From positions 1 through 64,000 of the forward strand of contig QPMI01000658.1 of NCBI GenBank assembly GCA_004431415.1: a stretch of DNA of 64,000 nucleotides, given 5' to 3'. Positions 6,878 to 31,928 of this stretch are shown in pieces. Position numbers and translations under genes: made by a program. The stretch's first letter is position 1. Each line of letters opens with the position of its first letter. This DNA is from Cyanophora paradoxa CCMP329. Lineage: Eukaryota; Plantae; Glaucophyta. The notes under the pieces were generated by a model. The model made no database searches. It was not told the origin of the DNA and saw only the letters and a program-made list of their open reading frames with translations.

Positions 6878-8228
6878 GTGGCGCGCTCGGGGCGGCCGGC
6901 GAGCGCGTCGCTCGCCGTCGCGGCCCTCGTCGCCTCCGCCGTCGGCGCGCCCCGCCCCGCCCCGCCTCCCGCCCCCTTCCCCGCGCCCCGCCTCCCTAGG
7001 CCTAGAGCTTTGGACGTGCGCCCCCGCCGCCGGGCCGGGTCCTCCACCCTTCCCTTACGCTTTCCTCGCCCCGCCCCGCCCCCGCGCGCCTCCCATCCGC
7101 CCCGCAACTACCCTCCCCATATGCATCCGGATCCCTCATCCCTCTTCCCCTCCCCATACGCATCGATATCCCCCCCACACCCCCCCCCCTACACCCCCAC
7201 CCCCGCGGCGCCTTAAGTTCTCCTCGCACGCGAGTCCCCCCCCCCTCCCCCCTCCCCCCCCCCCCCCCCTTCCCCTCCACCTCCGCGCGCGCCTCACGCC
7301 CGCGCGGCAGTGCACAACACGCTGCTGCTGGGGACGACGCTCGCCGTCGCCGCCGCCCGCTCCCTCCCCTGGGACTTCTCCCCGGAGGCCCTGAGGTGAT
7401 CATGAGGATAAATCAGGATCTAACTGTGCACATGTAAGGATCGAAGGATCTTATAATCTAATTAACATCTAGGTATAAACAACATTAACTAAGGATCTAA
7501 GCATGTAATGTAATGTAAGCTAGAGGCGCGACAGCCGCCCCGGCCCCCGCCCTCCGTCTCCGCTGCTGCTACTGCAGCTGCTCGCGATCGCCGCCGTTCC
7601 CGCTCTCGCCTTCTCTAGTGAGATAGGCCCTGGGCCTCGAGCTCCCCACGGGCTTCGCTTTTAATGTTCGGGCCCGGCCCGGCCGGGGCAGGTGGCGGCG
7701 CTGCTGGCGGCGCAGGCGGCGTTCGTCCTCCTCGCCCGCCGCCGCTCCCTCTCCCCGCCCCGGTACGGTGCGCCCCCTATCATCCAAACATCCAAGCATC
7801 TAAGCGTCTAAGGTTTCTAATCTTTGGATATAAGAATCTCTCTCCCCTCTGTCGCCCTCCCCTTCGATCCCTCTTAAGCTTGGATCCCTTGGATCGAAGC
7901 CTAAGCGTCTAAGCGTCGAAGCTTCTAAGGAGCTAAGGCCTGACTCTAGACTCTAGGAACGGATCGCTGACTCTGACGGTGCACGCGCCGCGGCGGGGCG
8001 GCATCTAAGCGCCGAAGCGTCTAAGGATCTCTCATCTGCATATATGGATCTAAGGATCTCTCCCCGCCCGGGGGCACTCCCGTTCGTTCACTCTTGGTCC
8101 CTTCGGTCGCCGACTCTGTCGGTGCACGCGGAGCGGCGCGCAGGGCGCTGGCGTGCGGGGCGCTGCTGCCGGCCTCGCTGCTCCTCGCCGCCGCCCTCCG
8201 CGCCGCCGGCTGGGGCTCCCCCTACTAG
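6878..8228 (+). pseudogene. Second copy of the last four exons of the NCL-like exchanger (partial duplicate or alternative 3' exon set)
   Basis: Exons at about 6878-6944, 7311-7387, 7692-7762 and 8144-8228 are near-identical to 2663-2729, 3472-3548, 3793-3863 and 4162-4246, with intact splice sites and stop codon. Only a MITE-disrupted remnant of the preceding exon exists (about 6316-6575). Confidence 0.7.
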
Positions 8229-8919
8229 CGAGAGCTAGGCTGTGCGGCTCCCATCTTTTGCGAATAACCTCCCCGCGAGCCCCTGATCATGAGTATACAT
8301 AGCGCCTCCCCCGCCCTCCCTCTCCCCCTCCCCCCCCCCCCCCCCCCTTTCCCCAGCTAGCTCACTCATCAGCTGGAGCTCATCGTTTCTCCCCCGCCGC
8401 CCCTCCCCCTCTCCCCCCGTCCCCCTGGGGCTTCCCCTGCTAGCGTCCCCCGAGCCCTGTACATACGAGAGCGATCCGAGGTTTGCATCTCAGTCATACG
8501 TACGGGCTAGCATACATACATACGTCAGTCAGGAGCTCATCGTTCGCTGGTTTTGGTCATGCTTCGAATATCTAAGTGTTATGAATACGCCGTGACGGTC
8601 CGCGAAATTGCGAGAATCTACGAGCAAGAGCTAGACTGCGGACTAGCTATATAGCGACCGTCGGACACGAGAGGGAGCGAGACTACCGTATATCTAGAGC
8701 GGCCGGCACTTCGGATTCGACCTCAAATATATATTCAATTGCAAGGCTTCATGATCAAATACTAATTGCCGGGGTTTGGAGCTAAAGCTCACACAAAGGC
8801 ACAGTGATGTATAATTAGAAACGCTTCGAAGTCCTATCATGCTTGTGTACTTGGAAGTCTTTTTAGAAAACAGAGACCGTCGGACTGGATAGCGGCCTTG
8901 TAGGCCGTCGAGTTGCGAC

Positions 8920-10683: not shown

Positions 10684-11656
10684 GATGACTCAGTTAAGTC
10701 AAATGGCCCGCGCTGTGTTACGCCCGAGCTGTGCTATATACGCAGAGCAAACTGTGTATGTATAGCTGTGGTCAGAGTTTGTCAAGGTGTATACGTACAC
10801 CACTGAAAAAGCGCGCACACGTGCACGTCACGGCGTAGACGTCCGACTGGCACAAGGTCGTAGCTGGCTTTGCTAGATGCGCATGCAGCACTGCAGCTTG
10901 CTTAAGCTTCCAAGCCTGGCAAGCTTGCTTGGCAAGCGCCGCTAACGTTAGCTGTACTACTGCTGCTGTATACGTAGCCGACTACCGTACAGTACTAGCT
11001 GTAGTAGCTAACACGCCTGCGGAGAAGCCGGACGTGCTACGTTATACGTACGGGACGGTACGGCCTGAAATGGTTCGGCCACTGAGTCACGGTATACTAT
11101 GATAGAATAGGCCTAGGAGACCCGGGTCACCCGGCCCGAGTCAGTGTGACTCATCATGATCACTGAGTCAGTGACTCACACAGTGAGTGACCCGACTCGA
11201 GCTCGGCCCGGCGGCCGGCGCGGGCCGGGGAGTCCGAGTCTGTCCGACCGTCGGACGCCGGACCGAGGGTCCGACGACGAGTCGACGACTCGCGAGTCGC
11301 GACGGCCCGGTACCGCTGTTACCCAGTACTTGAATTATAAGTTTATAACTTAGTAACTCAATCTATCAGTACAGTATAATACAGTATATAAGCCAGGGCC
11401 GCGGGCTTCATGTTGGGCCCTAAGCTTGAGCGATCGTGCGAGATGAATTGAATGTCGCGATCGCGATCGCAAAACCGAATCGATATATAATCGAATATTC
11501 GTTGTGCATATAGAAATCCAAAAATGAATTAATGCATATTGGGGGTACAATAGATGGCCGGGCGGCTGCGGCGCAGAGAACAAATGTTCACAGTATTGGA
11601 GTAACATTCTGTTCTTTTTTAACGTTTTCACGTAAATAAAATATTCACAGTATTAG

Positions 11657-11912
11657 TGTCGCGTGCCGCGATTCCCTCGGATTAGGCTAGCCGGCAGTCT
11701 ATGCGTAGCCGCTAGCCCTAGTCTAGTGCTATCGAGCAGCTAGCTCTAGCACTCTCTGTATTCTGACTTAGCGCCGGGCGCGACTCCGTTTGGGGGTACG
11801 CGATCCCTGGACGGGTACACTTGTGAATAGACCACTTGTGCTCCCAGCTACAGCCCCAGCCCGTGCGTGACCGCACGGACGCTGCACCGGGTGGGAATCC
11901 TCTCATCCGACA
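11657..11912 (+). repeat. 5' LTR (256 bp)
   Basis: Exact direct repeat of 30087-30342; TG...CA ends with a 5-bp terminal inverted repeat. Confidence 0.97.
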
Positions 11913-12457
11913 GGCGCCATCTGCTCACGGAGCCAGAACCCCGATCATCAGCGACCCGTCATCAGCAACCGACCCAGCTCGGCGACCGCGGCTCAGCCGG
12001 CGCGCAGGTAGACCTCAGCAGAGGTCGTGGGTCGCTTCTCGCGCCCCGCCTGCGCCGCTCCGGGCTGATCCGCAGTTGGCGACCGAACATTCTGGAAAGA
12101 ACCAGAACTTAGTCCTGCGGATCCAGGAACGCGCGCGAATACCGAGGGATCCCCGTCCCGATCGGATCGTCGCCGTTTCCTGAGCGAGCTGCGTGCGAGC
12201 CCGTGGGATCATTCCTGATCGGTCGCTAGTCACTCGCCGCGACGCCAGCCTTCTCCGGCTGTTGCGATCGTGCTGGACAAGACGAAGAGCGATCGGATCG
12301 ACGGCTGAGGCGTGCGCGCCCGAGCTGTCTCCGGAATCGCCGCAGCCGAGCTAGTGAGCTTGCTCGCCGCTGCTGTGGACCACGACGGCCTCGGATCTCG
12401 AGCGAGGCACATTCTCTCACGGAAAAGCGTGGCATTACGTCGCCGCTTGACCTGAGA

Positions 12458-14034
12458 ATGTCCTCGGGGACCGGAGCCTCCGCGGAGTTCGTCGTCCGGG
12501 CCGCGCACGCGCGTGGCGCCGCCGACATGGACTCTATGAGCGGATCAAATGTTTTGCAATGGATCCAGAGCCTGCCGAAGCTGCCGCCGGGCAGCGATCA
12601 GCGCACGGTTCAGGACCACCTCCGCCAGTTCGAGAGCTGCGCGAGCATGAGCAAGGACTTGCTCAGTGTCTCGCCGACTGCACACATTGAAGTGCAGAAG
12701 CGAACTGGGTGGGCTCTTCTCGGCACGCTAGATCACGGGCACCCCGTGCGCCAGAACATCTCGCTGTTCCAGAGCGCCGAGCAGATCGACACTCGCGAGC
12801 TCGAGAAGCTGAAGGCGTACCGGGCCGAGCGTGCGCGCACGAGCACGGCGGACCCGCGAGACGTCGCGATCCTCGAGACGCTCGACGAGAAGATCGCGCA
12901 AGCCGAGGAGGGCTTGCAGCGGACCGCCCTCACGGTCACGTACACCGCGATCAGGCGCCGTCTCGAAGATGACGCCGAGATGCGGAACCCTGACCGGTAC
13001 AAGGCGCTCCTCGACCTGCCGCACGTGGGCGAGGCGCCGGAGGCGTTCTATCGCCGCGTCCTCGACTTGAGCATCATCCCGGAGTGCCGCGAGGCGCACG
13101 AGACACCGCTTATGGCACTCATGCGCCACGCGGGCCAGATGCTCAAGCGCCGCACTCGCAATCAGTGCCGCGACTTCGAAGACTCCGAGATTTCGGACAC
13201 CGATCGCCGGCACATGATGACGAACTTCTCCACGGCTCGGAAGATCTATGACGAGCTGTCGCAGAAGATCGCGGACCGCGAGATCACGGGACCCTCTGCG
13301 GTCATCGACCTGGTAACCAAGCGCACCAATGAACTGGGCGCCTGGGACGTCGATATCTCCAAAGTCCCCGGCTCGGCCCTAGTGCTGGGCTCGCGCGGGA
13401 CGCCGCTGCAGGCGCCCACGGCTGCCTCGCGCACGCCGCAGAGCGCGCCGCCGATCACGCACACGCCAGCTGTCCCCGTCGTCCCCTCGCGCTCGAACGC
13501 GGGCGCCGGCGCGGGCACGCGCATCATGCTCGCGACGACGGTGTCGGAAGCCGAGATCGCAGAGCTTGAGGCAAACGCGTACGGGTGGGACGCGGACGAC
13601 GCCGAGGATCAGAACGCCGAGGTCATCTCGTTCCTGCAGCTCATTGCTCGGGACGAGCCCCTCGTCGTAGTCCGCGCGCTCTACCCGTCGGCGTCCGCAC
13701 CGCCGCCCCGCCTTGACGACCCGGTCTATCAGCAGAAGATCAAAGACTTCCTGAAGGCCCGGGGTCTCCCCGAGAAGCCCCGGCGGCCGTGCCACTGCGG
13801 CGAGTCGCACTACTCGTTTGAGTGCCGGACCAACCCGCGGCCTCTGCCCGAGTGGTCGGCAATCAACCCGGCCAAGCGCCGCGGGCCAACGGGCGCAGGC
13901 ACCGGTGACCCGAAGCGCCGGTTCTACCCGCGCCGCAGGGTGGGAACGGCCGCTCGAGCCCCCCGCCCCAGCAAGCTGCAGGGCCCCGGGCGTGCTACAA
14001 CTGCGGCAAAACCGGCCACCTGGCCGCGTCCTGC
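12458..14034 (+). CDS. gag: Gag region: putative capsid plus two Zn knuckles
   Basis: First ATG ORF after the 5' UTR; atypical knuckle CHCGESHYSFEC at 13790-13825 and canonical CX2CX4HX4C CYNCGKTGHLAASC at 13993-14034 (in the -1 frame). The capsid assignment is positional inference. Confidence 0.75.
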
Positions 14035-17000
14035 CCGGCCCAGGCGCAGACGCTCGAGGCCGCGGTCCGCCGCGCGCTTGCAGAACACGCCGCCGCCGCT
14101 GCAGCCCCGCCCGTGCCGCCCGCGACGCCGGCGCCCTGGGCTGACCCCAACGCCTTCACGATCGCGCGCGCCATGCTCGAGCAGGCTGCCCGAAGCGGCG
14201 CCGCCGGCCCGTCCGCGACTGCACTGCTTCCCGCGCCGACCGGCGGCCACGGGTCGGGGCCCACGGCGGCCCCGGCGCCCGCCGAGCTTGGCAAGGAAAA
14301 GCACGTGTACCGTGTGCGCATCGTGCGCAGCGACGAGGCGTTGGTCGACGATACCTTCCGAGCCTTCACCGCAGCGGCCGCGGCGCACGCCGCCGCGCTG
14401 CAGGACCCCCGGACGGCCCCGCTCTCAACGCGGTCGCCGCAGCCGCCACCGCTTTCGCGATCGCAGTAGTGCAGCTGTCCGGGGAAAGCCGCCCAGACCT
14501 GTGCCCCACGGGAGCCGAGAGGCCGGCCCCCTGCGAGGCGCAGGACCTGTTGCCGACCCGCCCGGAGTCGGGCCTGGACGAGGGGGAGAAGAAGGTCGCG
14601 TTCGACGCAGTGGACGCCGCCCTCGAGGAAATCGCACTCCTCTTGGCGGCCGCCCCGGACCCAACGGAGGTCGAGGGCGCTGACGCAGCAGCGAAGGGTC
14701 CCGCGCCGACGCCCGTGCCGACTTCTTTCCCCGCCGAGCTCGCCGCCGGCATCGTGGACGCCGCCCTTGAGGAGGTCGCACTCCTCTTGGCGGCCGCCCC
14801 GGACCCAACGGAGGTCGAGGGCGCTGACGCAGAAGCGAAGGGTCCCGAGCCCGCGACGGAGCTCGCTCCCACCAAGTCGGTCCCGAGACCGCCGCCGCCG
14901 AGGCTCCGGCGGACCCCGCCGCCGGCGTGGGCTGCTGCCTGGGGTACTCCTCGGGGCCGAGACGGTAGCGAGCCTCGAGGTGACCGACGACGGCGCCTCC
15001 CTCGCCGACGAGGACGCGACCGTAGCGTCTAAGGAGACCCTGCGCCTCAACCGCGCTCGCCTCCTCAGCGCTAGCCCCGGCCTAGACCTCACTCACTTCG
15101 GAGCCGTTGAGTTAGAGCCGGTGAAGGGCCGCGAGCACGAGCTGGGGCCCGTTCCTCTCTGGAACGTGGACGCGCACAAGCTGAAGGGCGCCGCGTCGGT
15201 CCCGCTCGACCGCGCGGCGTTCCTGTACCCAGCGCCGTGCGAGACTCACTGCGGCTGCACTGTGAGCGAGGGGCTGATCGAGGTCCGGGACGAGCAGTGG
15301 TATGCCACTGCGTTCCGCTGCCCGGCCCGCACCCGCCAGACGCTCTCCTTCTTGCTTGCGGCGTTCTCTCAGCCGCTCGCCACCGAGAGCACGTACCTCG
15401 GCTCGCGGACCCTCCCCACTGCGTTCCTGCAGATGCTGGGGCATGACCCGCTGTCCCAGGACACGCTGGCTCACGCCTGGCCGACGCACTATTATGAAAT
15501 CATGAGCCTCACGCACCAGGCCTCTCGCGTCGCCGCGAAGTGGGCCGGGGCCACGCGTGGCCGCACGCCGAGGGCCTCACGCCCGAGGGTCGCCCCGCAG
15601 TCGAGCCCGACGCCCACAAGCTTACGAAGCTTGGGGACGAGTGCGTCGCTACCGCCGGCTGGCTGGAGCCATACCGCCGCCACTGGAGCATTGGCCAGCA
15701 CTCGCCCGTGGCGGCCTCTCTCGAGCCGCACGAGATGACAGTGTCGGGCCGCCGCCAGCTAATCGAGCTGAGCGAGCTGTTGCCGGCACAGGACCGCCTC
15801 CGCCTTGCGTGCGCCTCGACTGTTGCGGGCTATTTCCTGCACCGCGTCGACTACGGTGCCCCGGGCACCGCCGGCGCCGTCGAGAAGATCCTCGGCCGCT
15901 TCTTTAAGTTCGCCGAGCCGCTCATGGTGGACGCGCGGGTCGACGCCTATGGCTTCGCCCTGCTGGCCCTCGAGCACGCGATCCAGTGGAAGACCGTGGC
16001 TTGCATCGGCGGCCGCGCCGGTCCCCACGACGCCCACAAGAGCGCCGTTGCCCTGGCCGACGGGAACCCTCTTGTCCCCTCGGACTCGGAGTTCACGGAA
16101 GCCGTTCACTCGCTTGCCGTCCTGGCTGCCTCCGTTGAGGTTCCGATCCCGGGGCGGGCACGTCTCCGCTCGGATCGGGACGCCGAGGGATGGCTGCGGG
16201 CAGCGCTCGCGGAGCGTCTGACTGCGTACCGCGACGGCCGTGCCCCCGCCTTCCCGGTCGTGAGCGAGGGCGAGTCCCGCACGGTTGAACGCGTTCCGGT
16301 GGAGCCCCGCGTCGCCGCCGCCCGCGTTCTGCACCTCCGGGACCTGCACTTGTGCGACACCTGGCTGCACTGGCCGCGCCTGCACGGGGCAGAGCCTGGC
16401 ACGTGGAGGGTCGGCCGCGTGCGCCCGATCACGCGCACCACGCAGTTGCCCCTGCACGGCACGACGCGAGGCGGGCAGCTGCCCACGATCGTGCCTGAGG
16501 AGCTCTACGTGCTGAGCCAGCTCGGCCCGCGCCCGCCGCTCACCGCCCTGTGCGATGCAGCCTGGGCCCGCACGGTTCCCGGATCCGCCGGGGCCGCGGA
16601 GCTGCTCCGGTACATCGAGGGGGCCAAGGCGGGCGACCGGGCCCACCTCGTCATTCTATTCCGTAGGCTGCTGAAGAAGCGGGCCGGTTTCAATGACGAG
16701 GCTGTCAAGGACATGATCGCGCTCGTGGAGAAGTGGCGCACGGATGCAGGCAGCCGCACCCCCACTCCTCTCCACGACCTGCCCACCACGCCGAAGCCGG
16801 CGTCGGACACGACGGGCGCCTACACGGCGAAGGCCGTCAGCGCGACGATCAAGGAGGCTAAGGCCTGCCTGCCGCCGCGCCCGCCTGTGAAGGCGCTCTC
16901 GCCGAGGGACCCGCCAGCGCCGGCGCGGCCGGCGCCCGTTCCTGTCCCGCCGCCTGCACCGACGGCGAAGCTCGTGACCTTGCACGCCGCGGCAACATGG

Positions 17001-20000
17001 CCGCCGCTTGCGAGCCCGATGGCGCCGCGGCCCACCGCCGCTCCGACGCCGCCCGCCACTGAGCCCGCGCCTGTCGAGCCTCGCCTGAGCGAGCCGCTAC
17101 TCGACGTCGCGCGCGCGACCGCGCCGGCTCCCGGCAGGCCGCCCGTCGCGGCGAGCGTGGCCGCGGGGACGGGGTCGTGCGCGTCAGCACCCGTGGGCGC
17201 GGCTCGCAGGGGCCACGAACCCGCAGCGCCCGCCGTGGGCAGGCTGAGGGGGAAGACGCCGAGATGGGCGAGCGGGGCGACGGCGATGAGGCGCCCGAGG
17301 AAGCGCCGCCGCCGCCGCCGCCGTCGGCTATCGATGAGAACCTGAGCCAGCGGGCCCTGTACGAGGCTATGGGCGTGATGAGCGGCGTCCTCGCAGTGCC
17401 GGGGTGCCCGCCTCGGCTCTGTGAGGGAAACAGATCACCGAGTGGCCCATGACGGCCCGGTCTGATCTCGCCCACCGCTGGAGCATCCCCTTCGACGCAC
17501 TGAAGGGCACGTTCGAGGACCTGCGGGTCCCGCACCTCAAGGCGTTTCTCGCCAGCGAGAGGAGCACGCCAATCCAGAACCGCCTGGATGGGCCGCCCGT
17601 GCCGCACGAGGAGCCGCCGGAGGGCCGCGTCGCGCTCAGAGCCGATCGCACCGTTCGCCTCGCGCGGCTCAACGCGGCCGCGTTCGAGCTCTTCATGATC
17701 GCGCTGGGGCTCCGTGGCCCCGTCACGCCCCACTCCCACGATCTCCCGTTCCACCTGCATGAGTGGACGGAGCAGCAGTTGGAGCACTTCCTGACTCTGC
17801 GTTGGACGATCCCTGCCACGCGCCTGCCGCGGTGGACGCACGGGGGCCGCTTCAACCCGAGCGCGGCCGTCATCCCGCCGCAGTGGGCCCAGTACCTCTT
17901 GCGTGCTCACACCATGTTCCGCGCCGAGGCGGTTGGGACCACCGTTCCCTCCGCGGAACGCGCCGGCCTGGAGTTCCCGTACGGGGTTCGCTGGCTGCGC
18001 CGCCACCTGCAGCTAGGGACGCGCGCGCAGGAGGAAGCCGCCGAGAGCGACCCGCACAGGGGCTTGGCCCTGACCGCCCAGCGCGCGGCCTTCCAGGAGA
18101 AGGTCTTGCATGCCCTCGAGCGTCACGCTGCACGGCAGTCGTTCACGTTCGACGATGCGCTTGTGGGCACCTACATCGCCGATGAGCCTGAGCCCCGCCT
18201 CGAGCCGCTCGACATTGACCATGTCGAGAGCGAAGAGGAAGAGGGCGAGAAGGAAGAGGCGCCGGCTGCCATCCCTGCGGCGGCGCACAGGCCGTTCGAG
18301 CCGCACAAGGACTGGCAGCCGCGGCCGCTGTTCTCGTTGGCGGACCCGACGTACGCCAACGATCACAAGCTCTTGCGCGAGTACATGGACCGGAAACACG
18401 CGTTTTTCCGGCCCCTGGAATGCTATGAGCCAGGGTTCACTGAATGGGCAACGCTGCCCGCGATCAGCTACCCCTTGCGCTGGCAGCACGCCGGCGACGT
18501 TGACGAGTACAACGTCGACGTGCTCACGCTGCAGGACCAGCACATGGGCGAGCTGTGCTCAACTATGCTCAAGCGCGTCGGCCCCGCCGCGCGCGGCATA
18601 GTGAACTGGTTCTCGCTCGTAGGCCCGCCTCAGCGGCCGTTCGACGAGGATCCGGAGCTCTTCGACCTGCAGGGGCTTGCATTCCCGCACGCCGCCTGCG
18701 GCGTCAGCTTGGATATCGTGCAGTACCTCGCGGTCGGGACCCGTACCGCACAGTCTGCCGTCCCGACGTACACGGGCGCCTGGGATCTCACGCACGAGGG
18801 CACAGCCCACGCACCCGTGTGTTCGACCCTGGGCCAGGTCTCGCGGGTGCTGTATACCGCCTTCTTCCACGAAGGCGGCGGCGCGCGGAACGCCCGCCGC
18901 CGTACATGCCGCACCCCGAGCGCCCCACCCTGCACACCTCAGTCTTGGGCGGTAACATCGCCGACCCGAACGAGGAGGACGCCAGGACGCCGTTCGCGAC
19001 CCGCTTCGCGCGCGACGTCGCCGTGCTGGCCCTGCTGCGCCCGCTCGCCGACAAGCGCGTCGAGAACGTTGAGGGTCGCCTGCAGACGCGGCGCATCTAC
19101 GCGCCCCGCCTCGTGGCAGGCACGGCCACGCCCGCGCCGAACGCTGCCTGCGACAAGGACGTCGCAGGGGGCGCGCCGCACCAGCGCGAGAACAAGAAGC
19201 TGTGGCTCGCAGTGACGGTCGCCCAGCTTGCGAGCCAGCCCAAGAAGAGCCACGCGAACCCGCGGCTCGTCACCGCGTTCGGTTACGAGCTGCCGCCTTT
19301 CCCGAACTCACCTCCGGGGACGTGCCCTTGGGCGCCGATCCCGGCGGAAGAGGAAATCCTCGCGACGGCCATCGGTTTTACGCTGGCCTGGCACGCGCGC
19401 TTCTTCCAGCGTCACGCGCCGGGCAAGCACCTCCGCAGCCAGCACTGGGCTGATGACTTTCTGTCGGCTGCGGCCATGGACGTCGAGTCGGAACGCCCGG
19501 CTGACTACGTCCCCGAGATCGCTCGGGCGGTCGCCGATCACATGGATGACTTCAACAAGGTGTTGAACTCGTTCCGCTGCGTGGTGCCGGACGGTCTGAT
19601 GGTGTTCATTCACGAGGCCTTCCTGACTAAGCCGACGGCCAAGCCGGACCGCGGGTCCGACGTCTTGCCTCAGGGCAAGAAGGTCTTCGACGCGGACGCG
19701 AGGCCGACGTACCCGGACGGTCATCCCACGCTTGCGTGGAAGTTTGGCCCGAACAATGCGGTCGTGCCGGACCACGAGGGTCGTGCGGCGATCTGTGGGC
19801 GGATCCTGCTCGCGATGCTGCAGGGCTTCCAGTATCCCCGCATCCCGCTGCTCGCGCAGCGGGTGGACAACTGTGCGCCCCTGAACGCCGCCATGCCCCA
19901 GAACGTGGCCGAGGTCTTCAGGGCCCTCTTGCGCACTATGACGAGGGATGAGTGCGCCGACTCGGATGCCCGCGCGCTGGCGGACGGCATCCGCGCGTAC

Positions 20001-23000
20001 CTCACAAACATGCCGCACGGTCTCGGGTACCAGCGTCTTGAGCTCGGCTCGCCCCCGATGGCCGGCGCCGAGGACGCGTGGCCCGCCGGCGATGACCTTG
20101 GCGCCGGGGGCAAGAGTGGGATACAGCGCCACCTTGAGGCCGCCCGCGCCGCCGAGGAGCTGGAGAACTGTCCCGGGAACTTCCCGCTGGGGCTCATCTT
20201 TACCGATGAGGCTATACCCCTGCGGCCTCAGTTCGAGACGATGCTCCGTTCGCTCTACGCCGATCTGAATGTCGCGATCCGCCTCGCGCGCCCGATCGAC
20301 TGGGAGACGGACGACCCCGTGCTCCCCGACTGGGACGTTGAGGCTCTGCGCCCGGCGCTGATGTGGGACGCGGTCCAGAACAAGGGCGCCGCGCCCTCGG
20401 CCCGGCGCAGCCTGACTGCGACGGCGGCTGTCGATAAGGAGGCCGAAAGCCTTCTGGTTCGCACGCCGTACCAGCCGATCTACGAAGGAGCGGTCCGCGC
20501 GACGTGGGCGGGCGTGCGGTTCCAGCCGCCCTCAACCATCGTCGGCGGGCTCGCGGACGACCCCGCCGAGGCGGCGCCATCCGCCACCCCGTCGGCGCCC
20601 GCGCCGGCGCAGGCCGCTGCGCAGACCGCCGCGCCGCCGACGGCGCCGCAGCAGGCGCGGCCCCGGCGCAACGCGGGCCAGGCCGTTGGCCGAGGCGGCC
20701 GCGGGCAGGGTCACCAGCGGGGCGGCCGGCACCGCGGTCGCGACGGCCGAGGCCACCGTGACCGTGGCGGCGACCGCGGCGGTGGCCAGGCGCAACCCGC
20801 ACAACCCGCTGTCGACCCGAACGACCCGTTCGGGCTGGATGCGTTCCTCGCGCGGCAGCAGGGGTATGACCCCAAGACCATGCGCGTAACCGTCTCGGAC
20901 GGGAAGGTGAAGGTCGAGCGGATCGCCGAGAGCGCTCCGCCAGACCAAGCCCCGCCGGCTGAGACTCCCTCCCGGACCTTGATGCCGCCGCCCAGCTCGA
21001 GCCGCCAGGCCGAGGCAAGCTCGAGCCGCAGGACGACACGGCCAGTCGCGCGTCGCAGGCCCGCCGGACCCCTGAGCGGGCCTCGTCTCAGCGCCGCTCG
21101 CGCACACCCGAGCCGCGCCGAGCCCCGTCCAGTCGCCGCTCTCGCACCCAGACAGGCGCGAGACGCGGGGCCCCTCCACGCGCCGCGAGCGCTCCCCGGA
21201 GCCCCACCGGCAATCCCGGGCGCCGCCGCCGTCCCGCCGTTCGTTGGAACGCCGCGATCGCGAGGGCTCCCGACGCCCTTCGCCGGACCGCCGGGACCGC
21301 GAGGCCTCCCGCCGCCGCTCCCCGGACCGCCGTGATCGCTCGCCGCCGCGCCGCGACCGCAGCCCGCCGAGCCGACGGTCCACGGCTCGCGACACTCGCG
21401 GCAGGCGGAGCCCTCGCCGAGGCTCGCGGGAACGCCGCCGGAGCCGAACACCGTCCCGCTCTAGCTCCCGCTCGCGCTCGCGCGATCGGAGCCCGAGCCG
21501 GAGCCCCCGCCATGACGATAAGCGGCGCAAAAGCTCGAAGAAGGGCTCGCGCGACCGCGCCTCGCCGCGAGACCGCCGCAGCCCTCGCAGCAGCCAGTCC
21601 TCTCGCCGCCCGCCGGACCCGCCGCGCGGCGCCGTAGACGCTGCGTACAAGCGGCACGAGAACGACGCCCGCCTGCGAGGCTGCCCGCCCACATTGCGCG
21701 AGCTCTTCGACATGGTCTGGAAGGCGCAGTACGCTGAGATGCCAGACTCGCTCTCGGCGTCCGCGCGAGCTGAGCAGGCCACCGCGCTGGTCCTGATCAA
21801 GCTCCAGAACCAGATGGACGCTCAGTCCGCGTCGTCCTCGGCCCGCGCCGCCGCGCCACCATCGGGTGGGCAGCCGCCGACGGGCGGACGCAACGAGCGC
21901 CAGCAGCCCTTTCTAGAGGGGCCTGAGGGGCAGAGCGAGGCCGGTCCGCAGTCGGCGGCGCCGTCCAAGCCTGCGGAGGGTCGCGCCTCCATCTCTCAGG
22001 CCCAGGAGCGGTCATCGCGTGCGAGCCAGGCCGAGCCGCCGCGCGCAGACCAGTCGACGCCGGAGCAGCCGCGCGCCTCAGTGGCCGCGCCGCGCGCCTC
22101 CGCCGCCACGACTTTCAACCCCAGGCTGACGTCCCAGCAGGGGCCTCCTGCAGTTTGTGCGCGAGTGCTCGAGCTGCCGCGACGTGAAGATCCGGGGCCA
22201 AGGGGTCACGGAATTGGGGCTTTGGCTTCAAACAGTCGAGCGCCAGATCCGCACCGCCGCTAGCCACGCCGAGACGCGCGCCAAGCCCGGCGGCGCTCAG
22301 AAGGTCTCAGACGAAGCCTTCGCCCAGGCAAAGCAGGCCGCTCGGCGGGCCCTGGAAGACGTCTGCCGCGCCCTCCGGGCCGGCATCGATATGCAGATCA
22401 GCCTCTCCGCTGGGAGACGGGCATGATGATCTCGCTCCTCCCAGACGGGCCCCGTGCCGATCTCGAGGCTCTGCGGGCCACGCTCGATCGCACCAAAGAC
22501 TGGCGAGCCTTGCTTGAGCGCGAGCGCCAGCACGAGGCTCGCGTGGCAATGCAGGCCGCGGCAAAAGCCAACCCAAAGCCCTTCTTCGCGGTATACACCG
22601 TCGCAGAAGCGTCGTCACCCCGCGGGCACGAGGCCCGCGCGCCCTGTGACCTTCCCGCCCACTTGCATACGCCGGCGTCGGTCCGGGCCGCTGTGCCGGT
22701 GCCGGCGGACGAGAAGTACATCTCGATCCGCCGCGTCCAGACGGTCGTCCACGAGCCGCCCGCTCAAACAGTCGCGCCGCCGGCGCCAGCCGCGCCGCCC
22801 GCCCGGCCCCACCAAAGAGCCGCGAGCCTGCGCCGGCCTGGGCCCGCCGCCTGCTGCACAAGCTCGGGCCGCGCTCGACCGTGCTGGTCTTCAACTGGCT
22901 GTCGAACCCCGCGCAAATGCTGCAGGTCGATCCAAAGACCCTGGAGCCCGCCTTACGCGCGGTGCATCAGGCGATCATGGACCGCTACGGCATCTCGATG

Positions 23001-26000
23001 CGCAAAACGGGCTACAAGGCCCCGCCACGGCCGACTCGCGCGTGGTTCTCGGGTTCAGCGCCGACAGCGGCGTTCGCCCCGCAGAACGCGCTCGAGGCCG
23101 CCGCGATCATTTACCCCGAGGGCCTGACCTCCGACGAGGAAGCTCTCATGCCCGCGGGCCACGCCCTGGGCTCCAAAAACCGCCCGTCCCTCGCCGTGCC
23201 CCGCCCAGCAGAGGAGACGCCGCTGGGAACGCGCGCCGGCTATGACCCGCCCAGCGACGAGTTGCTCTACGCCAACCGCCACGGCCCGGGCCCGCGCAAG
23301 CGGACCAAGCCCTCGCCGTTGGCCGACCAGGCAGAGCAGCGCCGAGTCGCCGAGCGAGCCGCGGCTCGCCAGTCCCGGCCCCCATCCCCAACCGCAAGCG
23401 CAACGGACCTGTCGGGTCCACCCGCGCCGCCGGAACCAGAATTCCACGTCCGCCGCGCCCGACCTAGCTTCCCGCGCGACCGGGCCCTGGAATTCTTCCG
23501 GCCAAAGACACTGCACATTCACGGCAGCATTGCTATGCGCCTGCCGAACGGCCGCTCCGGCGCTGAACGGCCCGCTCGCATTGTTGTCGACACGGGCGCC
23601 CAGGGAACTGTAGTTCCCCAGGAAGTCCTCGACCGCCTGCCGCCCGACGAAGTCAATTACGTCGAGGGCCACACGATAGTCCGCGGTTTCATGGACCGGG
23701 ACAAAATTCGTTGTCGCCGCGCCGACGTAGTCTTCGTTCTGGGCTCGCTCCGCTTCTGCCGCCGCGTCTTCGTCGTCCCGCGCGGCGCCATGGGCGTTGA
23801 GCCGGACATTCTGCTCGGCCTGGACGCGATCCAGGCCGTCCACGGCCAGATCGACACGACGCTGTCCGGGTGGTGCCTCCGGGCCCGTGACCACCTGCAC
23901 CGCGAAGTCGTCGTCCCTTTTCGGCTCCGGACCAGCTTGGGATCCTGGTCCGAGTCCTGGGACCAGTAAAGCTCCCCGTCGGAGAGGCCCTCGTCCCATG
24001 CACGCTCAATGGGCAGGGCCCGGCAACGCGTGAGTTGCCGCACCTCTACGTCGAGCCGTCGCCGGAGTCCCCGCAAGCCTTGGGCGTACTCTGCCCTTAC
24101 CAGCTGCATAATCACCCGGGAGACAAAATGTTTCACGTGCGGTTGTGCAATCCTGGCCGGCAGCCGGTAACCCTGCCGCTAGGATCGGTAGTAGCGGTCG
24201 CTTCGGCGGTCGCCCTACCGCCTGGTGATTTTGAGTACGAACCTGAGCAAATGCCTTGTAGTGCGAGTGCATTGACAGACCTCTTGATTCGCCGGCTGCG
24301 AATCGTGCCTGCCAAACGCCGCACTGGACTCCGCCACTTTAATAGAAAAGCACGCATGCTTGGCGCGGCATATGAGCCCGCCAAAGACGTTGAGAAAATA
24401 ATCTCCACCCTACGTTCTGTCGTAGATGAGGCGGAAAAGCAGCGCGCTCTGTCTAGCGCAGCGCCTGCTGAGCCCGCCGACCCACCCCGCGCACCGCCCT
24501 ACGACGTCGACGATATAGTCGTCACGTTTGGCGAGCTGCCCTTCGACACAGCCGACCGGCCGTTGCAGGACCTTGATGCTATGAGCATCATTAGCCTCGA
24601 CGACGATGCTATGAGCACGTCGTCACGAAGCGCGTCCCCAACGCCGGCCCCGATCACAGGCCCCTCGGTCGACGAGTTCGTCGCCGCAGTCGAGGCAGTG
24701 TCCGTCCCCAGAGACGCCACCCTGCGCTCGACCTTCCCCGGTCTCTCCGAAAAAGCGGAGCGCGACTTGCTCGATGCAGTCCGCGCCATGCGCGGCGACG
24801 TTACGGTCCGCAAGGCCGCACCGGTCGCCGACGCCGAGGCCCCACCCAGAGTGTGGTCACAGCCTCGCTTTCGGCCCGGCCCGATGCCCCACCCCTACGA
24901 CTGCAGCACCCGACGCGAAGCCCGCTGAGGCACCGCGGCCGGTGCCTAATGCAGAGGAGGAGTGGCAAGAGCTGCTGAAGAAGATTCCTGAGCTCGGCTC
25001 TCACCCGTCAATCACGACGGCGCAGAAAGCCGAACTTCACGCGCTCCTGCGGCGCTACAAGGATGTCTTCGCAGACAAGGTCGAGGCCAAAGAGGGCACC
25101 AGCAACCTGCTCTATTACGAGCACGTGATCAAACTCACGACTCGCCTTCCGGTGTTCACGCCTCCGCGGCGTATGAACCCGCACGCCGAGGAACACGCCC
25201 GCAAGGAAATTCAGAAACTCCTTGAGCTTGGGCTGATCGAGCCCTCCCAAGCGGCATATGGCTCGCCGGTAGTGCTGGCCCCCAAAAAGGACGGCACTTG
25301 GCGTTTCTGTGTCGACTATCGGAGGCTGAATCAGATCACCGAGCGGGACGTGTTTCCCCTACCCCGCATAGACGACCAGCTCGAGCGCCTCCGCGGCTCG
25401 ATGGTCTTCTCGACTGCTGACGCGACTGCCGGCTTCTGGCAGCTGCCTCTGCACCCCGGCTCCCGAGCCTACACTGCATTTGTGGTCCCCTGGGGTCACT
25501 TTCAGTGGAAGGTTACGCCGTTTGGGGTCACGAACGGGCCCGCGGCATTCTCCCGCGCGATCACTGCGATCCTGGGCCCCTTGCTGACCACCTGCGTCGT
25601 CGCGTACATCGACGATATCACGGTCTTCTCACCGTCCATCGATCAGCACCTTCTAGACTTGAAGGCGCTCTTCGAGACGATCTCTAAGGCGAACCTGCGC
25701 CTGAAGCCGTCGAAGTGCCGCTTCTGCGTGCCTGAAATCGACCTTCTCGGCCACCGCATCTCCGCCGAAGGGATCCGCCAGGACCCTGCGAAGACCAAGG
25801 TGATCACGGACTGGCAGACGCCGAAGAACGCGGACGAGCTCCGCTCGTTCCTCGGCCTCGCCGGCTACTACCGCCGCTTTGTCGAGAACTTCTCCAAAGT
25901 GGTGCACGCCATGCAGCGCCTTCTATTGAAGGACGCCGTCTGGAGTTGGCCAGAGGACGGCCCCGCCGACCGCGCCTTTAAGGAGCTGAAAGAACTCCTG

Positions 26001-29000
26001 GGCCGCGATATTATATTGCGGTTCCCGGACTTCTCGAAGCCCTTCATTCTCCAGACGGACGCCAGCACCTACGCTATCGGCGCAATTCTGAGCCAGGCCG
26101 ACGACAAAGGCGTCGAGCGGCCGCTCGCGTTCATCAGCCGCACGCTGCTGCCGGCCGAGATGAACTACTCCGCTACGGAGCTGGAGTGCCTCGCAGTAGT
26201 CTGGGCCATTAAGTATTGGCGCCACTATCTGCTGGGCGGCCCCCAGTTCCTGGTGCGGACCGACCACCACGCCCTCCAGTGGCTGAAGACGCTGGACCCG
26301 ACGACGGGCCGCCTCGGTCGCTGGTCCCTGCTCTTGCAGGCCTACGACTTTGAGATCGTCTACCGCCCTGGCAAGCAGAACGGGGGTCCCGACGCGTGCT
26401 CGCGTCTCCCTAAGGACCACCCCGTCTGGCAGCCAGGCGGTGCAGACGGTTCCTCGTCCAAGCCCGCGGCCTACAAGGGCGCCGAAGGCTTCGGCATCCC
26501 GCAACATGCTGTAGGGGCTGAGCCTGAGGATCCCGACGTCCCGCTGGGCATCTTTAGGATGCAGCTGGGCCCGACCGAGCGGGCCCTGCGCCAGCTCGCC
26601 AACTCCGCCGGCTTCCGCGCGGAAGCCCCAGCCGAGGGTGGCCGAGCCGCTAGACGCCGAGCGCCCCGGGCGGCGCCTGCGAGCGCCCCCTCTTCCCGCC
26701 GGGCCGCTCCTCTTATGCAGAGGAGGAGTCGCGGCCCCCTGTGCCAGCCAGTGCTCCTGAGGCCGAGCCCGACGCCGGCGCCCCTGAAGCGCCCGCGCCC
26801 GAGCCTGAGGGTGAGGCTGGCGGTGCTGCGGAAACCGATTCCGACGCCGAGCCCCCGCCGCCAGAGCGCGCGCCGCGACGCCTGCCCCGCGAGCTCGCCA
26901 AGCTTGCTGCGTCGGCTGGGTTCGCTGAGGCCAAGGCCTCCGCCTCGGCTACTGACGCCGCCACGCGCAAGCGAGCGCGGGCCGCCCCAGAGCGCTTCGC
27001 GCCTCCCGCGCCAGAGTCGGTCTCGCCGCCCCGAAACGACGAGAGCCGGGCCCGGCGCCCGCTGTCGAGGAGCGCGAGGCTCCCTCGGACGCGGAGATGC
27101 CCGACGCCCCTGAGGGCGACCTGGGCGCCCCGGCCGCGCTGCTAGAGGACGCTCACGCAGAGGCCGAGGCCTCGGGCGAGATCGATGACGAGTCGCTGCC
27201 GGAAGGGCCTGTCCCCTCCGACGCCTGCGACGCTGACGGCTTCCCCCTCGCTCTTGCGGAGCGAGTCCCGAAGCGCTCGGAAACCGGGCCCCGTCGGTGG
27301 GGCGCCAAGGGATTTGCCGAGCCGCGGCCCCTGCATCCCGACGCGCTCTTCCCTCGCGGCCCCGCCTTGAGGCGGCAGCCTCGAGATGAGTACAACACGC
27401 GCCACTGGCGCTCCCCGGTCGACCCCTCGGATCGGCCGGTGCCGATTCATATTGAGTGGGAGCCGGAGGACCCTGAGGGCGAGCCGCCTCCCGGGCCTCC
27501 GCGCCGACGCTCGCTCTCCCGGAGACTGCTCGCCACCAGATCCGCGTTCGGCCGGTCCCCCCGGACCCCAAGCCAGCGCCGCGGGCTCGAGGTCGCCCCT
27601 CTGCCCGCGGGCAGGCTTCCGACGACGCCGCCCCGCTCGAGCCTGAGACGGTCGCCGCCGAGGCCGCTGCCCCGCAGCGGTGGGTAGAACTCGACCCTAG
27701 AGGCCGGGACGTTCGCCCGCCGTGCAAGCCGGTCTTCGTGGATACCGTCCTCGACGCGTGGGCCTGCGGACCCTCGCCAGCCGTCGATGGGGCGCTCCCC
27801 GACGCGCTGCGCCGTATGTTCCCGCCCGAGAAGCGCAAGCGTCTGCTCGCCGCTCAGAAGGAGGATTCCTTCTGCAAGAAGCTTCTCGCCTTCCACGCAG
27901 AGGGCGAGAATCCAACTGTCTGTACCCGCGGCTCGAGGCGCGACGCAGATCCCTGCTCGCCCAGCTGCGCTCACTGCCTGCGGGCCAAGGAGCGCTTTGC
28001 ACGCCTGGCCGGCGAGTTCAGCCTGGCCGACGACGGCGTCATCGAGCGCAACCCCTTGGTCCCTGCCGGCCGGTTCCTACCCGTCTTGCCGGACGCTTGG
28101 ATCGACAGGGTGCTCTACGCCTATCACGAGGGCTGGGCCCATCGAGGCGCGCCCGTGATAGCCCGTCGGATCGCCCTGCGGTTCTGGTGGCCTGGCATGT
28201 ACGCCTCCATCGCTCGCTTTGTGCGGTCGTGCCCGCACTGTCAGTTCGCGAAGGCCGCGAAGCCCCGCCGTACCGCCATTCAGGTGATACAGCCTTCGGG
28301 CAAGGGAGACCTGTGGCAGGTGGATATCTTCCACTTGGATATGCACGAAGACGGTTCGCGATACATCATCGCGTACGTCGACGCATACACCAAGTTCTGC
28401 TATATCTACCCGCTCTCCCGTATCTCCGGCGAGGCCTTGCTCGCCACCGCGATCGACTTCTATACGCACGAGGGCGTGCCCGCGCGCATCCTGACGGACC
28501 GCGGGTCCCAACTCGTTGGGGGCGCGTGGAACGCGTTCTTCAAGGAGAAGGGTACCCGGTTCGTGCACGCGGCCGCCTACCACCACGCCTCGAACGGCGG
28601 CGCCGAGCGCCTGGGCGGAGTCTACAAGACTCTCGCTTACGCCATGTGCCGTGAGCACAAGCGGCCGCTCTCTGACTGGCCTCTTTACAACGCCGATATC
28701 GTTCTCGCGTTGCGGACCACCGTGCACTCCGCCACCGGGTTCTCCCCGATGGTCTTGCACCGCGGTTCTGAAGTGCACCTGCCCTGCGAAGTGCGCTTCG
28801 GAGCCGGCGTCCGCTTCGTGAACCCCGACCACACGCACCCGGCTGATTACCTTCTCGCGATGACGCGAGCTGCCGCGAGCGCCGACGCTGCCTCGCGCGA
28901 GTACCGTCGGTTCTATCGGAACCGCATGGTTGCTCGCACCGGCAACCCGCCTCATCGTCGCCGCTTTGAGGTTGGCGACAAGGTATTGTGCTGGATGGGC

Positions 29001-29398
29001 GAACACAACAAAGGGCTGTACAATTCGTGGGTCGGGCCCTACACTGTGACTGGTGTTAACCCTGGCGGTTACACCTACACGGTCAAGGGGTCGGCTAAGC
29101 CCTACTCCGCCAAGGACGATGCCCGTACCCGTCCTCTGCGTGAGACTGTTGCCCACATCGACTGCATGCTTCCGTTCCGCACGCGTCTCTCCGAGTCTCA
29201 AGCCCGTCCCCGCGTTGGTCGGCCTCGGAAGACTGCTGTGAACGCCGACGAGCCGGCGATCGACCCCGCACTCGCGGACTCGCCCGCTCAAGAACAAAAT
29301 CCACCTCTCGCCCCTGACGTCGACGCCGAGGGCCCGAGCGGGCTGCCGAGGGCGACGAGGTTGAGATGGATGACGCGATTTTGGTCGACGACCTGTGA
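12458..29398 (+). CDS. Gag-cargo-Pol polyprotein of about 5,650 aa after joining about 21 single-base -1 shifts
   Basis: Successive ORF fragments join without stops when one base is restored at about 13929, 14408, 14883, 14930, 15548, 17237, 17426, 18894, 21026, 21148, 22120, 22142, 22412, 22803, 23920, 24888, 24893, 26695, 27059, 27491 and 29341. The joined frame ends ...EMDDAILVDDL* at TGA 29396-29398. Confidence 0.75.
14610..14851 (+). repeat. Internal coding duplication: about 98-bp unit, 144-bp period (VDAALEE[IV]ALLLAAAPDPTEVEGADA.AKGP x2)
   Basis: Near-identical copies start at 14610 and 14754. Confidence 0.9.
23510..23920 (+). CDS. Retropepsin-type aspartic protease domain
   Basis: IVVDTGA (DTG at 23589-23597) and DILLGLD motifs. 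Confidence 0.9.
25020..26410 (+). CDS. pol: Reverse transcriptase and RNase H (Ty3/Gypsy type)
   Basis: SPVVLAPKKDGTWRFCVDYRRLN, PLPRID, PFGVTNGPAAF, YIDD (25605-25616), FLGLAGYYRRF; RNase H motifs TDAS, ELECLAVVWA, TDH, DACSR. No frameshifts in this block. Confidence 0.98.
27830..29180 (+). CDS. Integrase: HHCC, DDE core and GPY/F motif; no chromodomain
   Basis: HEGWAH...CPHC; WQVDIF, LTDRGSQ, SNGGAERL; TGFSP; FEVGDKVL...WVGPYTV. Confidence 0.95.
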
Positions 29399-30074
29399 GA
29401 AGCTCGTCCCATTGCTGTTCCCTTTGCGATCGCTGTGCTTGCGCCGTGGGGCAGATTTCTTTGCCCGCTTTGCCTCAGCCCTGGCTTCCGAGGTGGGACG
29501 TGGGTTGGCTGGTGGCCAATCACGGGGCGCCATCTGGGCCTTTCGTTCCATTTTCTGGGATCTGGGCCCGTCGCTCGTGGAGAGTGGCTGGGTGTAGGCC
29601 TCCCGGGTGCCTGCGGGTCCGTGAGGGGCTCGAGGTTGCTGGCTGGGGGTGCACTCAGTCGTGCCCTATCCTTTCGTTGGGCCTGATGGGCGGCCCGGAT
29701 ACCTCCTCGCTGGTTTCTTCCCGAGGCGGTGAAACTTCCCATCCGTGCCACTCTCCTTCGGCTCTCGCCGTTGGAGCGAGTTTGGGCCAGCTTTTGGGGG
29801 TTTCGAGTTCTATGCTTTTCCATCTTTCGAGCTTGGCCTGGGTTGCCTAGGTACATGCACTATGCTGGTATCGGCTCCTATTTCGGTCGCGAGCTATGCT
29901 ACCTGGCATATCTGGTTGCTGACGACGGACATTCTACTTCGAGAGGAGTTCACTCGCCGCCGCCCTGTCGCTGCCGTGGTTGGTGCACACCCCGGCGGTG
30001 GGGTGGACGCCCCGTCGAGCATGCAGACTCGACGTTCGGCTTGGCGCGGTCCGGTGCGAGGACGCACCGTATGC

Positions 30075-30085
30075 AGAGTGAGGAG
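30075..30085 (+). other. Polypurine tract (plus-strand primer)
   Basis: AGAGTGAGGAG, one base upstream of the 3' LTR start at 30087. Confidence 0.75.
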
Positions 30086-30086
30086 T

Positions 30087-30342
30087 TGTCGCGTGCCGCG
30101 ATTCCCTCGGATTAGGCTAGCCGGCAGTCTATGCGTAGCCGCTAGCCCTAGTCTAGTGCTATCGAGCAGCTAGCTCTAGCACTCTCTGTATTCTGACTTA
30201 GCGCCGGGCGCGACTCCGTTTGGGGGTACGCGATCCCTGGACGGGTACACTTGTGAATAGACCACTTGTGCTCCCAGCTACAGCCCCAGCCCGTGCGTGA
30301 CCGCACGGACGCTGCACCGGGTGGGAATCCTCTCATCCGACA
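30087..30342 (+). repeat. 3' LTR (256 bp)
   Basis: Identical to 11657-11912 and followed by the ATTAG TSD. Confidence 0.97.
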
Positions 30343-31928
30343 ATTAGAGTATAACATTCTGTCTTTTTTTTATTAAGGGCTTGATTGTTCAAGCAAACGG
30401 GAGCTTTTTTTACTCATTCCACTATATATATCTGTTCATCGAGATATCTCCCCTCTTCCCGGAGAAGTTCCCCCCCTTGGAGCCCCTTCCCTCCTTCCCC
30501 CCTCCGGATCCCCCTCGAGCTCTCTCCGGATCTCGATCCGCTCCCGGCCCTCCGGATATCCGACGGCGTGAATTCGAAGGGCAAGGGCACCCTCTAGTAG
30601 ATGTTAGAATTTTCTAGATCTAGAGGGTGGCTGGCTACTAGGCTAGCGCTGGCCATATATATGCATGGGGGGGTGCGCATGCACGTGGGTGGCATGCAGG
30701 TCGCGATCGAGTCCGAGAACGCGTGCCGCAGTGCGCATGTGCGCACTGCGATATCGATACATAGGCCTAGCCGCGGCGCCGCGGCCGGAGTCCGAGATCT
30801 AGACCGCCGGATCGGACTCCGAGAACGCGTGCGCGCAGCGATATATAGGCCTAGGTTTGCTATCTAGCTATATATAGGGCTTTATATAGCTGGCGCTCGC
30901 GATCGCTGCAGGGTTGGGGCAAGTGGCCATATGCATGTATATGGGCGCGCGGCCGCGGGGGCCGCGGCCGGCGTCGGCGGGCTCGTGGGGATGCAGATCT
31001 CAAGGGGCTGCTCGCTGTGTTAACGTTATAATTAATATTATAATATAATTACGTATACCACCGACGTGGGCGCCGGGAGCCTGCAGCTGGCAGCTGCAGG
31101 GCCGGCGCCGGCCGGGGCCGGTCGGAGTGAATTCGAACCGCCGGCGCGGGCGCCGCGCGCGGGCAGCCTAGCTGTACTGCAGATGGCCATGCAGACGGCC
31201 ATGCGCCTGCCGCAGTGCAGAGCTACAACTTCGGAGGCCGCTCGAGGGCCGGCTATGACCAAGGCGGGTGAAATTTGGTGCCGCAGTGCTCCGGAGCTCC
31301 CCGCTCGGGGAGGCACCTAGGCGGCGTGCCGGGCCGGGGTGCTGATCGGCTCTCGAGGTCAGCCAATTGCAAGGGGGGGGCCTTGGGGAAGGAAGGGCCG
31401 GGGAGGGGCCGCGGGAGCCGGGCCGGGCCCGCCTGCACTGCGGCACCTTGGCCCCGCGCGCCGCGGCGGGGCCGGGTCGCGGGCGAAGGTCAGACGGTCG
31501 GCCCGACCGCGGCCCGCGCGCGATTGAGCAGCACCCACCCTTGGCCTAGGCCTCCGGATCCCTCGAGCTCGCCCCGGCCCGGGCCCGGGGCCCACCGAAC
31601 GCGACGCTCCGGTCCCGGCGCAAGAAATTAAATCATTCGAATTAATATTCTACATGCACATGTGATCGCGAGTACCGTGTACGTAGTGCACGCGTACGTG
31701 TACGCACAAGCTGTAATGATAATACGCAGCTTAGATATAAACCGGAGCCCGAGGACCTACTAGGCTATAGAGCTATATCTAGTTTTATCTACATCGGTAA
31801 ATCTAAGCGCCGCGGCGGCCGACGACGCGCTGAATCATGATCATGATCAGTGCATCTAACTTTAGTAAGCGGCATATTAGTTCACAATATTAGTTCCTTC
31901 ACGCTGACGTTCTGTTCGCGCTGACGGC

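Follow-up and report, generated by a model that had tools for sequence, protein, structure and literature searches.

An RGG box and a long RS tract lie in frame within the single gag-pol reading frame of a giant Ty3/Gypsy element from Cyanophora paradoxa

We analysed a 64,000-nucleotide stretch of DNA from the glaucophyte Cyanophora paradoxa CCMP329 (assembly GCA_004431415.1, contig QPMI01000658.1, positions 1 to 64,000 of the forward strand; hereafter the window), in which a complete 18,686-bp long terminal repeat (LTR) retrotransposon, a member of the Ty3/Gypsy group (Metaviridae), occupies positions 11657-30342. This element encodes an RGG box followed by an arginine/serine-rich (RS) tract, and both are in-frame parts of one gag-pol open reading frame (ORF) of ~5,650 codons. 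An initial annotation of the window had pointed out the two tracts as a retrotransposon-encoded module with a ~200-aa RS domain that is not a standard Gypsy part. The strings that it quoted are all present at the place named, on the forward strand; the RS tract is ~198 residues long; both tracts are enclosed by the element, whose domains follow the order PR-RT-RNaseH-IN (protease, reverse transcriptase, RNase H, integrase); and no Pfam family covers them. The tracts and the segments around them are as follows:

20688-20786, forward strand: RGG/RG tract GRGGRGQGHQRGGRHRGRDGRGHRDRGGDRGGG, window frame f2, 33 residues with 4 RGG and 7 RG, including RGGDRGG; pLDDT 50-56 in a single-sequence prediction
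20835-20921, forward strand: predicted helix and beta-hairpin island DPFGLDAFLARQQGYDPKTMRVTVSDGKVKVERIAES between the RGG and RS tracts; pLDDT 68-75, single-sequence
21031-21146, forward strand: first part of the RS tract (…RRTPERASSQRRSRTPEPRRAPSSRRSR), window frame f1
21147-21627, forward strand: main part of the RS tract, window frame f0, ~160 residues; pLDDT 43-52
21625-21852, forward strand: block B, with three predicted helices immediately behind the RS tract; pLDDT 74-85

As given, the window places these pieces in three different frames, with the RGG tract in f2, the first RS piece in f1, and the main RS tract in f0, and the ORFs that cross the tracts run from 18504 to 21332 (f2), from 20963 to 21634 (f1), and from 21076 to 22260 (f0). 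To check the frame, we compared the element with contigs from publicly available DNA runs of this organism, X1 and X2 among them; in each run, one contig of 3.3-6.2 kb spans the region and shows a single difference from the window besides one-nucleotide places. These places, behind 17129, 17424, 18892, 21030, 21146, 22118, 22139, and 22411, carry an extra C or G relative to the window at full depth in four of four runs, and this holds for all eight of them between 17100 and 22700. Twelve more extra-base places (X1, X2) lie at 13926, 14410, 14881, 14952, 15546, 24844, 24891, 27028, 27517, 29332, 29795, and 29839. The element has at least 20 known places, and 20 of 20 directly precede a run of two to five of the same letter. 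Among the differences listed, three are full-depth substitutions (16748, 21401, and 23207); at 21401, the window has G (Gly), where the contigs of all four runs have A (Asp).

The missing C or G at homopolymers, together with the few substitutions and the identical LTRs, indicates under-calling in a long-read consensus and not decay of the copy, and the three-frame split of the tracts is a product of the window's assembly. The published C. paradoxa assembly, as described in its report, was built from PacBio RSII reads with Canu and Quiver and corrected by majority rule with Illumina data, uncovered areas remaining as uncorrected PacBio sequence (PMC6704402); the window presumably derives from that assembly. 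It is very improbable that the window is instead correct as given, such that this copy is frameshifted and its RS text is untranslated or read in another frame. While the three pieces do sit in three frames, and f1 is itself open across 20963-21634, the full-depth extra bases speak against that explanation, and losses of C or G at homopolymers beside an intact LTR pair fit consensus error rather than decay. Were the gaps real in this copy, the frame would still be intact in the main form of the family.

When a -1 shift was applied at every place, none of the 14 segments between 12458 and 22700 (3,409 codons) contained a stop, as against 47 stops with a +1 shift and 53 with no shift; the chance that all 14 would be open under random frames is 5e-6. 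Within 21147-22118, f0 alone is stop-free, whereas f1 has three stops and f2 has seven. Downstream, nine of nine segments fit the path to the stop at 29396, with three putative frame changes (near 22.7-23.0 kb, 23.9 kb, and 26.7-26.9 kb) outside the known places. Taken together, 18 known and three such additional places yield an ORF of ~5,653 codons, which the one-nucleotide gaps of the window split into more than 20 frame pieces. Frame-based reading of other repeats in the same assembly needs equal caution, as those may carry similar gaps.

Gene models of other copies read through the same junctions, which supports the frame independently of the run contigs: P0005 is uninterrupted through the 17424 and 18892 junctions, and P0010, a variant copy of ~95% identity on another contig, is uninterrupted through 21030 and 21146. 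The RS frame is kept in other copies: P0018 is identical, and P0010 matches at 34 of 36 residues of the f1 piece and has one in-frame two-codon gap. The gene models P0001-P0004 and P0013 skip the RS tract by means of predicted introns, which we read as the gene predictor dodging the frame breaks. An apparent 28-residue deletion in the RGG tract of P0010 was not counted as length variation, because its flanking residues look frame-shifted. The initial annotation had treated the RS text as one frame; this fails in the window as given and holds once the extra bases at 21030 and 21146 are allowed for. It had named, as observations that would refute it, an RS frame not conserved among copies or the translation of another frame; neither is seen, as these copies keep the RS frame and it is this frame that joins up with gag and pol.

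Residue content was then compared with the known motif classes. RS domains of SR proteins comprise at least 50 residues with >40% RS content, accompanied by one or more N-terminal RNA recognition motifs (RRMs), and the RGG/RG class is defined by di- or tri-RGG with spacers of 0-4 residues. By its motifs, the RGG tract fits the latter class, as it has RGGDRGG (spacer 1), two further RGG, and seven RG within its 33 residues. The RS tract (R 35%, S 21%, P 14%, D 8%, E 4.5%) contains 35 RS/SR dipeptides, 27 RD/DR/RE/ER dipeptides, 10 SP, and 8 RSP, and in its best 50-residue window 54% of residues are in RS/SR dipeptides and R+S amounts to 70%, so that it has the length and content of an RS domain. 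RRSRTP occurs at ~21095 (f1) and ~21440 (f0), and RSPDRRDR repeats and SRSSSRSRSRDRSPSRSPR occur in f0. The RS tract has a net charge of +49 and holds 50 Ser/Thr; among 60-residue windows of the gag side, the top four by positive charge, at +12 to +20, all come from the RS tract, followed by the RGG region at +10, and the zinc-knuckle region reaches +6 at most. Two tandem repeats in the tract are in frame, with periods of 39 nt (21235-21339) and 21 nt (21328-21374), both multiples of 3. G+C at third codon positions (GC3) is 0.84 in the RS tract versus 0.80 in pol, and the choice of Arg, Ser, and Asp codons is also like that of pol. By RS/SR dipeptides, the tract ranks first of 6,342 six-frame 200-residue windows in the 64 kb (29 in f0; mean 5.2, standard deviation 3.6).

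The RS tract is predicted to be disordered, in an AlphaFold2 run made without alignments, where low pLDDT cannot tell disorder from orphan sequence. The RNA of the RS region has a folding z of +0.56, and 73 of 100 shuffled sequences fold equally well or better; with no unusual RNA structure, nothing points to the stretch being retained as a folded RNA element. On the opposite strand, a stop-free frame of 429 codons runs across 20532-21821. We do not accept it as a gene, since both strands are open as expected at 75% G+C.

Both tracts lie within a long orphan region between the zinc knuckle and the protease (~8.5 kb), which is rich in Ala/Pro/Arg linkers and contains a conserved block upstream of the module:

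14411-22700, forward strand: orphan stretch from the nucleocapsid to the protease region, ~2,900 codons, read between the extra-base places in frames f2, f1, f0, f2, f1, f0, f2, f1, f0, f2, f1, f0
20178-20396, forward strand: block A, conserved and lying ahead of the module, with 46% identity to residues 8-81 of the gene model P0017

In the orphan stretch, Pfam detected no family at E <= 0.5 in 11 correct-frame segments or at E <= 0.01 in 10 ORFs; RRM_1 was likewise absent from these segments and ORFs at the same cut-offs, and the matches to HCNGP (0.052) and zf_VAL1_N (0.06) were dismissed as sub-threshold noise. A sequence search of the PDB returned 0 matches at E <= 1, and the ESM Atlas gave no usable match. 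A phmmer search with 18894-20561 against 1.84e9 representatives returned 15 matches, none from outside the species: P0017, at 46% identity, and 14 same-species copies at 85-100%; similarly, a word-based query with f0-segment residues 168-323 returned four matches, all of them same-species copies. P0017 (tig00000658_g2911), a diverged Cyanophora gene model and the only diverged relative found, aligns at 20178-20396 and 21619-21819, with block B being 37% identical to its residues 146-212. With P0017 as the query, at near and longer lengths, no further relatives were found.

What the two tracts do for the element can be framed by analogy. We tentatively propose, from composition and from parallels in other reverse-transcribing elements, that the RGG and RS tracts form an arm, disordered, strongly cationic, and tunable by phosphorylation, which binds the genomic RNA of the element and condenses it. 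In this scheme, the polyprotein would be translated with the RGG box and RS tract providing most of the gag-side positive charge; the two tracts would bind RNA non-specifically and neutralise the ~18.4 kb genomic RNA during particle assembly; and Ser phosphorylation would act as a switch, in which host SRPK/CLK- or CDK-type kinases lower the charge and prevent premature or non-specific RNA binding. The proposal follows descriptions of the hepatitis B virus (HBV) core C-terminal domain (CTD) and the foamy-virus GR boxes as working in this manner.

The HBV core CTD is only tens of residues long, far shorter than the ~198-residue RS tract. It is reported to be an SRPK substrate whose phosphorylation state tunes RNA binding (PMC6317823, PMC3219723). 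Like the tract described here, it is an Arg/Ser(/Pro)-rich, cationic, disordered segment with SP and RS sites on the structural side of a reverse-transcribing element; unlike it, the RS tract has 13% acidic residues, and there is no sequence homology between the two. Moreover, the HBV domain is fused to the C terminus of a capsid assembly domain, whereas the RS tract lies mid-polyprotein, with an orphan helical block on either side. In foamy-virus Gag, the GR boxes, described as mediating RNA encapsidation (PMC4198681), resemble the RGG box in being a Gly-Arg-rich tract in a Gag-side protein of a retroelement. The GR boxes, however, stand in for the Cys-His motif, while in the Cyanophora element the canonical CCHC motif is kept and the RGG box lies ~2,200 codons further on.

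Several observations weigh against an RNA-condensing arm. The ~13% Asp+Glu of the RS tract, present as RD/RE pairs, suits mixed-charge domains of the nuclear-speckle type equally well, and the distance of ~2,200 codons from the zinc knuckle means that the tracts are no extension of the nucleocapsid. Between blocks A and B, P0017 has 64 residues versus ~407 here, and the module is absent from its gene model; this suggests that a linker has recently gained the module as a dispensable, lineage-specific insert, with the caveat that P0017 is an automatic model that may skip sequence. The conservation that the initial annotation had proposed to check extends to the copies of this family (P0018, P0010), and not across families as far as the P0017 gene model represents them. 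All copies are near-identical, so that purifying selection on the RS tract is not measurable among them. Finally, out-of-frame windows that contain stops reach 25-26 RS/SR dipeptides, and DNA of 75% G+C gives Arg-rich text in any frame. The RS composition by itself is thus only moderately beyond chance, and it is the frame continuity, not the composition, that makes the case for the RS tract beyond chance.

Some of these same observations would fit neutral growth of low-complexity sequence, in which the module is a tolerated disordered spacer that arose by replication slippage in GC-rich DNA and has no sequence-specific role. Tandem repeats inside the tract, a local G+C of 75% with Arg-rich text in all frames, a P0017 without the module, and a 2,900-codon insert that is orphan throughout, with Ala/Pro/Arg-rich linkers, are all in keeping with such an origin. 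We nevertheless regard it as doubtful, as the RS tract is the charge extreme of the whole gag side, stays open and in frame in an actively transposing and nearly invariant family, and is enriched in Ser and Asp beyond what GC pressure alone yields. A role in nuclear import or speckle targeting, with the mixed-charge RS tract serving as a transportin-SR-type signal for the Gag-side protein or the pre-integration complex, appears unlikely, although it has a clear rationale. RS domains are import and speckle signals, and the Gag or integrase of retroviruses and retrotransposons needs import signals, here to enter a nucleus whose envelope may stay intact. The tract has the RS content of an RS domain (54% RS/SR over 50 residues) and 27 RD/RE-type pairs, the gag side shows no other obvious basic import signal, and nuclear Gag is described as common (PMC6042332). 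Against import, such signals are usually short, so that 200 residues and an RGG box far exceed the need, and the integrase has a basic GRPRK motif of its own at 29217-29231.

The initial annotation had suggested RNA processing, whereby the module keeps the 18-kb genomic RNA unspliced or recruits the export machinery; we consider this distinctly unlikely. An RGG box beside an RS tract does resemble viral proteins that regulate splicing and export, herpesvirus ICP27 for example, and the whole coding region is one intron-free ORF, which implies that full-length RNA must stay unspliced to be translated. The premise of a host with dense, short introns also stands, at 9.2 introns per gene with a mean of 86 bp in the genome report (PMC6704402). 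On the other hand, the protein would be made in the cytoplasm, midway in a polyprotein of 5,650 residues, which is awkward for a nuclear regulator, and Pfam finds no RRM or other specific RNA-recognition domain in it.

Like SR and SR-related proteins, the tract-bearing protein has an RS tract with >40% RS content over 50 residues or more, and it has RD/RE pairs as in the U1-70K type. It differs in that no RRM, PWI, or other such domain was found in its correct-frame segments and in that it is a retrotransposon polyprotein; having no RRM and being part of such a polyprotein, it is not a member of the SR protein family. Among giant Gypsy elements, internal regions of up to 25 kb are given for Burro of planarians and of 11-13 kb for Ogre of plants, and Burro is described as having extra in-frame domains between gag and protease (PMC6431247). 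The element in the window is similar to Burro in its very long internal region (18.2 kb) and in the extra in-frame sequence between gag and protease. The extras in Burro, however, are recognisable captured domains (MATH, BCL-2, SUMO-like, env-like), whereas here they include RGG and RS low-complexity tracts and nothing recognisable.

Among the papers listed by our full-text literature searches, none describes an LTR retrotransposon as encoding an RS domain. In its broadest form, the idea would be that the retrotransposon has an SR-like module of its own (the RGG box and the 200-residue RS tract, acted on by host SR kinases) that packages, exports, or splice-protects a giant 18-kb RNA in an intron-dense host, which is possible but rather doubtful. 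If true, this would give LTR retrotransposon polyproteins their first described RS domain and would offer a natural test of the idea that capsid-side cationic charge has to scale with genome length. If the module acts on RNA at all, a retroelement would have acquired or grown an SR-like, kinase-tunable RNA-binding domain rather than borrowing host SR proteins, and additional polycationic charge would be tied to how unusually long the element is (18.2 kb internal region, ~5,650-codon ORF).

The assignment of the element to Ty3/Gypsy is based on its Pfam order (zf-CCHC, Asp_protease_2, RVT_1, RT_RNaseH, Integrase_H2C2, rve), which is that of Ty3/Gypsy; the Asp_protease_2 match is under the Pfam cut-off, but the DTGA motif is nonetheless present. 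The two LTRs, each 256 bp with TGT..ACA ends, are identical at 256 of 256 bases, and the 5-bp target-site duplication ATTAG is found on both sides. Its remaining features are the following:

11657-11912, forward strand: 5' LTR, 256 bp, TG..CA; target-site duplication ATTAG at 11652-11656
12458-13926, forward strand: start of the gag-pol ORF, with Met at 12458, window frame f1; the gene model P0018 begins at the same Met
13790-13825, forward strand: knuckle-like CHCGESHYSFEC, near the start of the gag-pol ORF
13993-14034, forward strand: canonical CCHC zinc knuckle CYNCGKTGHLAASC (nucleocapsid), PF00098, E 5.1e-07
23568-23831, forward strand: aspartic protease (Pfam), DTGA at 23589
25281-26345, forward strand: reverse transcriptase and RNase H (Pfam), YIDD at 25605
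28089-28583, forward strand: integrase zinc-binding domain and catalytic core (Pfam); ORF stop at 29396-29398 (f1)
30087-30342, forward strand: 3' LTR, with a purine-rich tract just upstream and target-site duplication ATTAG at 30343-30347

No TGG of a tRNA-type primer binding site was seen in the bases after the 5' LTR (11913-11940, GGCGCCATCTGC), and tRNA complementarity was not searched further. Rfam gave 0 matches in the element.

The closest matching proteins are C. paradoxa gene models from EukProt (with names of the form tig…_g….t1), with eight named models on seven assembly contigs. Contig depth is ~1,650 on the element versus 32-121 on unrelated contigs in X2, and 57 versus 2-5 in X1; depth does not equal copy number, but these ratios hint at tens of copies. 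A multi-copy, nearly invariant family with identical LTRs indicates recent activity, which points to a young, multi-copy element recently active in C. paradoxa, a host in which LTR elements are stated to make up only 1.77% of the genome (PMC6704402).

Of the runs listed as containing the stretch, none is recorded as RNA. In two further runs that we guessed to be RNA (X21 and X24), the element was touched only by low-complexity pieces of 33-37 nt, diverged LTR-like pieces, and one exact 373-nt contig, which do not bear on expression or splicing of the RS region. This contig (X21, 29356-29728, depth 3.4) is the only exact piece of RNA type and lies at the end of the internal region before the 3' LTR. 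Contig joints were considered as introns and rejected, because their sides are 20-31 nt in GC-rich low complexity or the joints are present in DNA runs.

Other parts of the coding region show additional sequence features. A 126-nt direct repeat just past the zinc knuckle (14593-14718 and 14737-14862, 86% identical, 144 nt apart) encodes two acidic Ala/Leu-rich units (…VDAALEE[IV]ALLLAAAPDPTEVEGADA…). A second Arg-Gly-rich patch at 17132-17266 (forward strand, f1) reads RRGERGRGDG…TRGRGSQGPRTRSARRG and is followed by an acidic/proline run; f1 is the true frame there only between the 17129 and 17424 places. In the C-terminal region of the integrase, Pfam finds no chromodomain, and RPRVGRPRKT is encoded at 29217-29231 (forward strand), with a GRP core that we take to be AT-hook-like.

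Outside the element, a tandem array with a 51-nt unit extends over 40379-41290, with 13 overlapping 300-nt copies listed at 51-nt spacing, 64-90% identical to the reference copy. Upstream of the element, 2657-4254 and 6872-8236 share four direct-repeat pairs of 100-150 nt (85-97% identical, 3.8-4.2 kb apart, 70-74% G+C), which may stem from a segmental duplication or belong to another repeat present twice.

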